Part shown: positions 61,013 through 62,451 of the stretch, piece by piece
Position numbering within the stretch: position 1 is the first letter of the stretch
Layout: each line of letters starts with the position of its first letter
Origin: Escherichia coli
Lineage (GTDB): Bacteria; Pseudomonadota; Gammaproteobacteria; Enterobacterales; Enterobacteriaceae
DNA length: 64,000 nucleotides
NCBI RefSeq assembly: GCF_003790525.1
Contig: NZ_CP033635.1
Direction: 5' to 3' (one strand)
Program-made: the position numbers and the translations under genes
The notes under the pieces: model-generated
What the model saw: the letters and a program-made list of their open reading frames with translations, nothing else
What the model was told of the DNA's origin: nothing
Databases searched by the model: none

Positions 61013-61189
61013 ATGTTAGTTAGTAAAAGTAATGGTCATAACGTTAATACAGTTTTGGGTAGTGGAAGTTGTAATGAAAACAATTCTTCCAACCCCATGG
61101 AGCTACTAGCTTATAGTATTATAAATTTAATTTGTAAGGAAGCTGCCTCAGGGATGTATCGCGGTGTTCTTGAAACTTTACAAAAATAA
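61013..61189 (+). CDS. Small hypothetical ORF (58 aa) in the ileY-adjacent accessory patch
   Basis: ATG with GAGGAA Shine-Dalgarno at 6-nt spacing; could be a gene fragment. Confidence 0.3.
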   Translation: MLVSKSNGHNVNTVLGSGSCNENNSSNPMELLAYSIINLICKEAASGMYRGVLETLQK

Positions 61190-61593
61190 TGTCTGAATGT
61201 ATATATCAAGAAGGCAACGCCTTTGTCATTATGGGAGCTGGAGAACAATTAAAACGTATTAAATATGATGTTGATGAAAATAACTTAAAAGTATTCAACG
61301 TACACTTTGATAATAATGAAGAGTTAGTTACTGATGGTGAGCCTGACGTAGTATGTTTAAGCAAGTAGGAGTGGGAAGATCTTCTCATTAAACTAAAGCT
61401 GGAGAACAAAGAAAATGCGGTTTCTGAAACTGACCTGTCATCGAATAAAAATAATGTTGATCAGTTTTTTGAATACCATAAAAGAAATGAATAGAACATT
61501 TTCGATAATATAAGAAAAAGTGATTTTCATGTTGGTTCACTTCAGCCAGGTAGAAGGCGTAGTGTTATTTTAGAAACGCCAACAAATGTCTGT

Positions 61594-62451
61594 GTGGAAC
61601 CACATAATTTATATGACAACCAAATATATAAAGTTTCACCTGTAACTAAAAACTCTCAGCAAGTTAAAGGCCACTATGGAGATAAATTGAAAGAAATGCA
61701 GATGTTCCTTAACCAGATAAGCAATGCACTTCAACAGGCTCCATCTTTGTCAGAGTCAAAGGAACACACCATAGATATTCAAAAAATAACGGATGCCTTT
61801 GTGAAGGAGTTCCGTGGGATATTATTTGATAAAAATGGAAATTCTTCAGAGCGTTTATTCAATTTTTATGAGTGCTGCTATATATTTTTACCAAGAGCGC
61901 AGCCTCAAGATAAAATCGAAAGCTATAATTCAGCACTGCAAGCTTTTTCCATCTTTCGTTCATCTACTTTGAATAATAATGATGTAGGGTTTAATTTCAA
62001 ATTATTCCCAGAAGTCAAACTGCCTGGGGAAAATCTTGAAACGGTATTCAAATACAAAAAAGGAAGTTTTGTCCGGGAGATAGCCAGAATTAACATTGCT
62101 CTACAAAAAGGAGAGGGTGGTTTATATAATTTAGGTGGGTTGGATTTTAAGGGATGCTTCTTTTCTGGACAGAACTTCAGTAACTATGATATTCAATATG
62201 TGAACTGGGGGACGTCATTGTTTGATCTTGATACTCCATGTATTTTTAATGCGCCTGCTTACAACAAGAGTAATGAAAAATCATTAGAACGCGTCAGCGA
62301 AAACGGTTTAAGTGGAGTCTTGTCTGATCGTAATAAAAAAATAAAACTCATCACGGGCGTGGCACCATTCGATGATATTTTATTTATGGATGATGACTTT
62401 GATGATCCTTCCACTAAGGATGATCCCGTGGAGAATAGTCCCCTTGTATAA
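61594..62451 (+). CDS. Hypothetical protein with a pentapeptide-repeat (A[D/N][L/F]xx) segment
   Basis: 285-codon ORF (GTG start; first in-frame ATG 34 codons later). Residues NLGGL-DFKGC-FFSGQ-NFSNY-DIQYV-NWGTS-LFDLD show 5-residue periodicity. Low-GC, AT-rich context. Confidence 0.45.
   Translation: MEPHNLYDNQIYKVSPVTKNSQQVKGHYGDKLKEMQMFLNQISNALQQAPSLSESKEHTIDIQKITDAFVKEFRGILFDKNGNSSERLFNFYECCYIFLPRAQPQDKIESYNSALQAFSIFRSSTLNNNDVGFNFKLFPEVKLPGENLETVFKYKKGSFVREIARINIALQKGEGGLYNLGGLDFKGCFFSGQNFSNYDIQYVNWGTSLFDLDTPCIFNAPAYNKSNEKSLERVSENGLSGVLSDRNKKIKLITGVAPFDDILFMDDDFDDPSTKDDPVENSPLV

Follow-up and report, generated by a model that had tools for sequence, protein, structure and literature searches.

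Downstream of the tRNA gene ileY, the chromosome of an Escherichia coli strain (RefSeq assembly GCF_003790525.1, contig NZ_CP033635.1) carries short open reading frames followed by a frame of 285 codons. The locus raises two questions: whether these frames are separate genes or the remains of a single one, and whether the product is related to the pentapeptide-repeat proteins, which in enterobacteria include type III effectors and DNA mimics. A first-pass annotation of the 64,000-nucleotide stretch of DNA analysed here (the window, to which all positions refer) had left the choice between a decaying horizontally acquired gene and an unrecognised small multi-gene module.

The locus is very probably the ypjCB pseudogene of E. 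coli, that is, a single, inactivated gene located in an AT-rich islet of horizontal origin. The AT-rich patch that had been noticed beside ileY is indeed there: the GC content is 0.32-0.37 over 60750-62750, as compared to 0.54-0.60 at 54000-56750. ARAGORN places a tRNA with anticodon CAT at 60181-60256, annotated in RefSeq as ileY, tRNA-Ile(CAU). An Rfam scan of 59500-63500 revealed nothing beyond the tRNA. The pseudogene and its pieces are as follows.

61013..62451, plus strand: ypjCB pseudogene, whole span, with the native TAA stop at 62449-62451; colinear with the intact 484-aa protein WP_001521105.1.
61013..61189, plus strand: fragment 1, YpjCB residues 1-58 (58 aa, ATG start), closed by a premature TAA; matches NF050179 positions 1-58, E 3.2e-26.
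61189..61368, plus strand: fragment 2, YpjCB residues 60-118 (59-aa ORF), ending at amber codon 119; matches NF050179 positions 60-118, E 6.1e-37.
61594..62451, plus strand: fragment 3, the 285-codon frame, corresponding to YpjCB residues about 195-479 (DUF5508 region); Pfam DUF5508 E 8.3e-141, NF050179 positions 195-460, 546.8 bits.

The YpjCB family is described by the NCBIfam profile NF050179 and by the Pfam domains DUF5507 (PF17612) and DUF5508 (PF17621). The matches of the three fragments to NF050179 are colinear and score 92, 128 and 547 bits, respectively. Because the gene is broken, each fragment falls below the cut-off of the profile (650 bits). An intact 484-aa homologue at the same locus reaches 961 bits over profile positions 1-465, and it carries DUF5507 (E 1.5e-76) and DUF5508 (E 3.3e-147) in one polypeptide. 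The alignment to ypjB and ypjC that had been proposed as a check settles the identity of the locus: the fragments are pieces of YpjCB. The 285-codon frame exists as described, at 61594-62451, and a stop-free run of at least 285 codons was obtained in 0 of 2000 shuffles of 61000-62500. The pseudogene is already catalogued and annotated (PGAP 'ypjCB', NF050179, DUF5507/DUF5508).

Region 60700-62700 was matched by megablast in 3,084 of 5,426 complete E. coli genomes, always on the chromosome. Apparent plasmid copies turned out to be chromosomes deposited as plasmids, apart from a 358-nt fragment that is identical to K-12. The position of ypjCB between ileY and the pinH remnant/ypjA is kept in SC516, KBN3987, XL1-Blue, MG1655, Sakai and the window, and the synteny glaH/amylase/ileY/ypjCB/pinH'/ypjA is common to SC516, KBN3987, K-12 and O157 Sakai. 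In SC516, the gene order is glaH, an alpha-amylase-family gene, tRNA-Ile, ypjCB, a recombinase remnant, a 39-aa hypothetical protein and ypjA; the counterpart of window 61013-62451 is annotated there as 'ypjCB: YpjCB family protein, internal stop'. SC516 and SMS-3-5 are among 23 complete E. coli genomes whose sole difference from the window is one extra A. Most of these 23 genomes carry the annotation 'ypjCB: YpjCB family protein' with an internal stop, and some the annotation 'DUF5507 domain-containing protein'. In the MG1655 RefSeq record, the same locus is listed as two CDSs, ypjC (DUF5507, 160 aa) and ypjB (DUF5508, 263 aa).

The inactivating lesions were mapped by comparing the window with SC516, with the intact KBN3987 allele and with K-12; a second alignment took in twelve further genomes.

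61182..61186, plus strand: frameshift site, A5 in the window and A6 in the three compared alleles (alignment with SC516, KBN3987 and K-12).
61366-61368, plus strand: amber codon 119, TAG in the window and CAG or ACG in intact alleles (alignments).
61492..61494, plus strand: second in-frame amber, codon 161, TAG in the window and CAG in intact alleles (alignments).

The 1-bp deletion in the A-run creates the TAA that closes the 58-aa ORF. It is absent from all 23 near-identical genomes, in which the matched region spans 2002 bases, compared to 2001 in the query. A5 at 61182-61186 may reflect either a mutation specific to this strain or a sequencing error in the homopolymer. Even if the deletion is a sequencing error, ypjCB is broken by the two amber codons. 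K-12 also has TAG at codon 161, on a different haplotype. With the frameshift mended and the ambers read as Gln, the window encodes a 479-aa protein showing 96% identity with P0021, an intact protein of the same length from the database. Programmed readthrough of the ambers was considered and rejected: intact alleles of the same haplotypes do not have them, and in other strains unrelated lesions interrupt the gene.

Comparison with intact homologues, also proposed earlier, reconstructs one frameshift and two ambers. Placed one after another, the pieces align with intact 484-aa homologues, and each lesion can be specified to the nucleotide, which bears out the view of a decaying horizontally acquired gene. 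Since the lesions lie within one frame, the small ORFs are debris and not separate genes. The suggestion of an unrecognised small multi-gene module has to be given up: the gene is already recognised, and its pieces form one reading frame in other strains. In a gene count, the window fragments represent neither novel genes nor a novel module.

Inactivation of ypjCB was also found outside the window. Fifteen complete genomes sampled across the ranking divide into six with an intact gene (449, 484 or 492 aa) and nine with a pseudogene, and ypjCB is broken in 10 of the 16 sequences examined. The number of distinct inactivating events is at least nine, the window being counted. The lesions include TAA116, TAG119, TGA121, TAG161, 1-bp indels at four positions, insertion of an IS5-family element (ISKpn26-like) and an IS1 deletion. 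One genome has lost ileY together with ypjCB through IS1, and the same ileY/ypjCB loss was described in E. coli W and B (PMC3032704). TAG119 is carried by one shared haplotype block, present in the window group, CE10 and LR28. Thus, it is common by descent or recombination. TAG161 is found on two haplotypes, that of the window group and that of the K-12 group. On both backgrounds the closest relatives (CE10 for the former, STEC005/ET565 for the latter) have CAG, so that TAG161 arose twice independently. Sliding identity plots reveal that ypjCB alleles are mosaic.

Two putative expression signals lie upstream of the first ATG.

61001..61005, plus strand: Shine-Dalgarno sequence GAGGA, 7 nt before ATG 61013, read from the sequence and kept in 4 of 4 aligned alleles.
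60929..60956, plus strand: candidate sigma-70 promoter TTGTCT-16-TATAGT, ~57 nt before the start codon, matching the consensus only weakly.

Good Shine-Dalgarno sequences had been ascribed to the small ORFs. The ORFs are present (61013-61189, and the frame with ATG 61231), but only the first has a good Shine-Dalgarno sequence. ATG 61231, located inside the ORF 61189-61368, is the internal Met74 of YpjCB, and the start of fragment 3 is a mechanical GTG at 61594. Inspection of the sequence showed no Shine-Dalgarno motif at a usable distance from ATGs 61189 and 61231 or from GTG 61594. Translation from the one real ribosome-binding site could yield at most a 58-residue N-terminal peptide. Promoter and terminator scans gave site numbers in the region no higher than in shuffles. 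Because such sites are no commoner than in shuffles, the promoter at 60929..60956 can only be put forward as a candidate.

The ileY/ypjC region is bound by Hha, to which ypjC transcription responds, with a 9-fold change in the study concerned (PMC2408971). This binding fits H-NS/Hha control as known for AT-rich foreign DNA; by analogy, H-NS/Hha probably control transcription at this locus as well. In K-12, a commensal biofilm was more heavily colonised by a pathogen when ypjC was deleted, and biofilm cell counts rose 3.5-fold; constitutive ypjC expression was without effect in the same study (PMC3646849). Given the deletion phenotype, truncated YpjC products may still be partly active. Other than in the studies on Hha and on the biofilm, ypjC/ypjB are mentioned in the literature as transcriptome or table entries. 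A literature search on the O157 orthologue ECs_3517 found nothing, the tags ECs3517 and Z39xx giving only irrelevant matches.

The question of a pentapeptide-repeat protein concerns the C-terminal half of the intact product, where two features stand out.

62125..62229, plus strand: pentapeptide-like segment of seven x(D/N)(L/F/I/W)xx units (shuffle test, allele conservation, sub-threshold profile matches).
62368..62448, plus strand: acidic C-terminal tail FDDILFMDDDFDD..., the last 30 residues having a net charge of -9.

The periodicity reported for the 285-codon frame is real. The units are YNLGG, LDFKG, CFFSG, QNFSN, YDIQY, VNWGT and SLFDL, with a hydrophobic centre in all of them and D/N before the centre in 5 of 7. 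Among 5000 shuffles of the 285-aa frame, 4 score as well over six units and 11 over eight units. However, the periodic stretch is only 35 residues long, corresponding to about 1.75 turns of a pentapeptide beta-helix, and it does not amount to the repeat-dominated central part that had been described. The i-2 position of the units is rarely occupied by a small residue. The segment is the most constant part of YpjCB across alleles, most of its residues being invariant or nearly so.

Profile searches were carried out for the pentapeptide-repeat family. No Pfam pentapeptide model matched the 285-aa frame or the intact 484-aa protein at E<=10. On the excised segment, PF00805 remained below threshold (best E 0.066), with E<=0.1 in 5 of 14 alleles and E<=0.001 in 0 of 14. 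The top PDB profile match of the segment is the Qnr protein 3pss (AhQnr), in register with the first helix turn and non-significant (E 0.068). Antibody V domains, which gave non-significant matches in the same search, were discarded as relatives. The first-pass annotation had itself named the absence of a significant pentapeptide-repeat match as evidence against its reading. Because no such match was found, the pentapeptide-repeat reading fails on its own terms.

A relation to EspX-like effectors had also been raised. YjbI of K-12, which we take to be the counterpart of EspX4, was used as a positive control and is easily detected, with Pentapeptide_4 at E 1.7e-7 and the SopA central domain at E 6e-56. 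Pfam searches with the 285-aa frame and with the intact protein found neither a SopA-like central domain nor an N-terminal pentapeptide region in YpjCB. Profile comparison of YpjCB with YjbI using hhalign gave a probability of 1.7% over 30 columns. Neither the EspX-like relation nor the broader reading as a type III effector or DNA mimic is upheld by these results. As judged from sequence comparison, YpjCB is not a member of the EspX/SopA family.

A word-indexed search of 5.8 billion proteins returned 426 matches. Identity is 76% or more for each of the best 120 of the 426, and those of the 120 that carry an organism name come from E. coli or Shigella only. Exhaustive phmmer search among 1.84 billion 50%-identity representatives revealed one full-length cluster plus fragments. 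A 2688-aa protein (P0154) matched through many weak 'GxYTVTGTDxNGC' repeats and was rejected as a repeat-inflated chance match. From these searches, the family appears to be confined to Escherichia/Shigella. No match was found in 50,697 phage records, and PADLOC gave no defence-system match. In PHROGs, only phrog_30093 was matched, a family of unknown function that contains YpjCB. A PDB sequence search with the intact protein gave no match at E<=10.

No hydrophobic segment or signal peptide was detected, the maximum Kyte-Doolittle value over 19 residues being 1.01. Because it has no hydrophobic segment, intact YpjCB is cytoplasmic. Its first 28 residues are 61% S/T/N/G. At the other end of the protein, the acidic tail has a conserved core, MDDDFDD, and an extreme end whose length differs among alleles. 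AlphaFold2 prediction of the full-length protein on a 30-allele alignment gave a mean pLDDT of 38.9, and that of an isolated 104-residue beta/pentapeptide segment gave 40.7. These models are unreliable; the alleles are too alike to carry a co-variation signal. In the full-length model, the best-scoring stretch is residues 330-400 (pLDDT 60-72), and isolated beta-bridges occur roughly every 5 residues over residues 366-404. Search of the PDB for structural similarities using Foldseek with these unreliable models revealed nothing at E<=0.001, with TM-scores about 0.08.

How far do these data allow other readings of the locus? The fragments could be a functional small multi-gene module whose proteins are translated separately and have roles of their own, as the listing of ypjC and ypjB as CDSs in MG1655 would suggest. 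The biofilm phenotype of the K-12 ypjC deletion (PMC3646849) would agree with this, and the repeated origin of TAG161 could hint that truncation at that codon is tolerated or favoured. We nevertheless regard such a module as very improbable. A ribosome-binding site is found only at the first ATG, the frame is uninterrupted in many strains, and the break points vary, with 58, 118 and 160 residues in the window, 160 in K-12 and other positions elsewhere. Moreover, the first product in the window has only 58 residues, and constitutive ypjC expression had no effect (PMC3646849). One may also suppose that the locus never was a functional gene, the long frames of some strains being chance survivors in an AT-rich, H-NS-silenced remnant. 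The family has no homologues outside Escherichia/Shigella, most of the sequences examined are broken (10 of 16), and pairwise dN/dS among intact alleles is 0.55-0.8, with 1.68 in the first 60 codons. From the values of 0.55-0.8, constraint on the intact protein is weak. However, pairs of intact alleles are open although up to 161 substitutions separate them over 1350 aligned bases, and with 161 random substitutions at matched transition bias (indels not counted) the frame stays open in only 48 of 20,000 simulations (0.24%). The frame was therefore maintained by selection during divergence. In addition, the Shine-Dalgarno sequence and the start codon are conserved, a large number of columns do not vary, among them the complete FFSGQNF motif, and in-frame length changes among alleles are limited to a 105-bp deletion and the variable C-terminal end. 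A locus that never functioned is thus hardly credible. We infer that the single reading frame of ypjCB was kept open by selection until recently. Weak constraint together with many terminal-branch lesions points to a conditionally dispensable accessory gene, with a frame that was maintained through about 10-12% divergence and is now lost again and again.

As to the nature of the protein, YpjCB may be viewed as a true, though divergent, member of the pentapeptide-repeat proteins, folded as a short right-handed quadrilateral beta-helix and acting as either a type III effector (EspX/SopA-like) or a nucleic-acid mimic (Qnr/MfpA-like), of which the window would hold a decayed copy. The seven in-register units, seldom equalled in shuffles (4 of 5000), form the best conserved part of the protein; the top PDB profile match is a Qnr in register, PF00805 comes to E<=0.1 in 5 of 14 alleles, and the AlphaFold2 model has its beta-bridges, roughly every 5 residues, over residues 366-404. 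The S/T/N/G-rich N-terminus, the lack of a signal peptide and the acidic tail would be compatible with a secretion signal or a mimic, although this is inference only. We consider this reading unlikely. None of the matches is significant and the Pfam pentapeptide models are absent even at E<=10; YpjCB shows no SopA domain and no convincing alignment to YjbI, although the positive control works; 35 residues make less than two turns, as compared to the many turns of known members; and the model of the isolated region collapsed to a pLDDT of 40.7. The segment is too short and too weak to make YpjCB a pentapeptide-repeat or EspX-type protein. What it possibly forms is a two-turn pentapeptide mini-helix. 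It is conceivable, though we lean against it, that intact YpjCB has no enzymatic role and serves as an interaction module, its 35-residue, largely invariant segment folding as about two turns of a pentapeptide-type beta-helix beside the acidic tail. A more specific scenario, which we hold to be quite improbable, is that intact YpjCB is a functional Escherichia-specific protein in which mini pentapeptide beta-helix and acidic tail serve as a binding or mimicry module (a type III substrate of LEE or ETT2, or a nucleic-acid or protein mimic). Selection would have kept the gene in some lineages, and others would have lost it repeatedly, on two occasions through an identical CAG-to-TAG change at codon 161. 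If this were true, DUF5508 would represent a novel, minimal form of the pentapeptide fold, and a long-unexplained pair of K-12 y-genes would be given a role.

The explanation that we favour, a single decayed ypjCB gene, can be put as follows. One ancestral gene of about 480-490 codons encoded a cytoplasmic protein that is restricted to Escherichia/Shigella and to which no function has been assigned. It is composed of a polar, variable N-terminus, DUF5507, a dispensable linker, a DUF5508 region ending in the pentapeptide-like segment, and the acidic tail. The gene sits in an AT-rich, horizontally acquired islet between the tRNA ileY and a recombinase remnant. In the window, the 1-bp deletion in the A-run stops translation after residue 58, and beyond this point the frame is blocked by the CAG-to-TAG changes at codons 119 and 161. 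YpjCB belongs to the E. coli y-genes that still lack a function, relatives outside the genus and a structure. Its short pentapeptide-like segment, as the most constant part of the protein, offers a concrete target in intact alleles such as O157 ECs_3517 or WP_001521105.1.

Comparison with known systems places YpjCB apart from two groups of proteins and inside a third. With the pentapeptide-repeat proteins (PF00805/PF13599/PF13576; Qnr, MfpA), YpjCB shares a 35-residue run in the x(D/N)(L/F)xx register. These proteins have dozens of units, whereas YpjCB has at most seven or eight, and DUF5507, the predicted helical region and the predicted beta-hairpin region of YpjCB have no counterpart in pentapeptide-repeat families. 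The EspX/SopA-like effectors (yjbI; NleL/SopA) resemble YpjCB in their location in AT-rich backbone islets, their frequent pseudogenisation in K-12, their polar N-terminus and their pentapeptide-type sequence. YjbI contains clear Pentapeptide_4 and SopA central domains, in contrast to YpjCB, which has neither. K-12 ypjC (b2650) and ypjB (b2649), as well as O157 Sakai ECs_3517, share with the window the same locus, the same neighbours and the same protein family. The window allele, of the SMS-3-5/SC516 type, differs from that of K-12 (about 89% nucleotide identity) and does not have the 105-bp in-frame deletion of the latter. The amber at codon 161 is common to both, and the window allele has in addition an amber at codon 119.

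The ypjCB pseudogene (window 61013-62451, + strand) carries a nonsense change at codon 161 of its ancestral frame of about 480 codons (window 61492-61494). The identical CAG-to-TAG change is present on two haplotype backgrounds, one comprising the window and SC516, the other K-12 and 98202 (loci L003 and L008 are of the K-12 type). On both, the nearest relatives have CAG at this codon, namely CE10 on the window/SC516 background and STEC005 and ET565 on the K-12/98202 background. The shared stop reflects recurrent mutation at this codon or else gene conversion over a very short tract. 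As a separate observation, the premature stops at glutamine positions in the sampled ypjCB alleles are amber in 3 of 3 cases.

An in-frame deletion of 105 bp (35 residues) is common to the K-12-type allele (L003) and the O157-type alleles (L010, L011 and L020). It spans codons ~208-243 in the numbering of the 484-aa form, the intact KBN3987 allele. Despite this deletion, the O157 Sakai orthologue ECs_3517 is an intact protein of 449 aa. Thus, the corresponding linker of YpjCB appears dispensable.

A piece of the gene was also found in a plasmid record. NZ_MN732922.1, a conjugative IncHI2 plasmid of 245 kb, bears 358 nt (L016 5001-5358) that are 100% identical to the K-12 ypjCB allele over its nucleotides 502-859. 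No annotated gene covers this piece, which may have been captured from a chromosome or may be an artefact of assembly.

Around ypjCB, the following features were considered:
57372-59624, - strand, intact alpha-amylase-family ORF of 750 aa, in the AT-rich islet of ypjCB (GC 0.36-0.41)
60181-60256, + strand, tRNA with anticodon CAT (ileY)
60257-61012, either strand, non-coding gap of 756 bp from ileY to ypjCB
~62812-62979, + strand, serine recombinase/invertase gene remnant (pinH in K-12), inside ORF 62782-63048
63203-63322, + strand, 39-codon ORF, 65 nt upstream of the start of the ypjA autotransporter gene (63388)

The pinH remnant lacks both ends in the window. It was found in all genomes examined, including one that has lost ypjCB, and marks the islet as the relic of a mobile element. 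The product of the 39-codon ORF, WP_001120794.1 (“hypothetical protein”), is annotated at the matching place upstream of ypjA in all four genomes with retrieved flanks; the ORF could encode a leader peptide, or its annotation could be a matter of habit. The SC516 and KBN3987 annotations give the alpha-amylase-family gene as an intact glycosyl hydrolase. Its K-12 counterpart is the pseudogene ygaQ, with an internal stop, and its O157 Sakai counterpart is split into two CDSs.

Neither Rfam matches nor features of the K-12 annotation were found in the ileY-ypjCB gap. On its minus strand, a T-run comes directly after a GC-rich hairpin (60449-60470), an arrangement that is terminator-like for a transcript running from the ypjCB side toward ileY. 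The tRNA itself is labelled tRNA-Met by ARAGORN and in the Sakai record vs tRNA-Ile (ileY) by RefSeq/PGAP, a known ambiguity of lysidine-modified tRNA-Ile2. The E. coli W genome paper likewise describes this as a mis-annotation.
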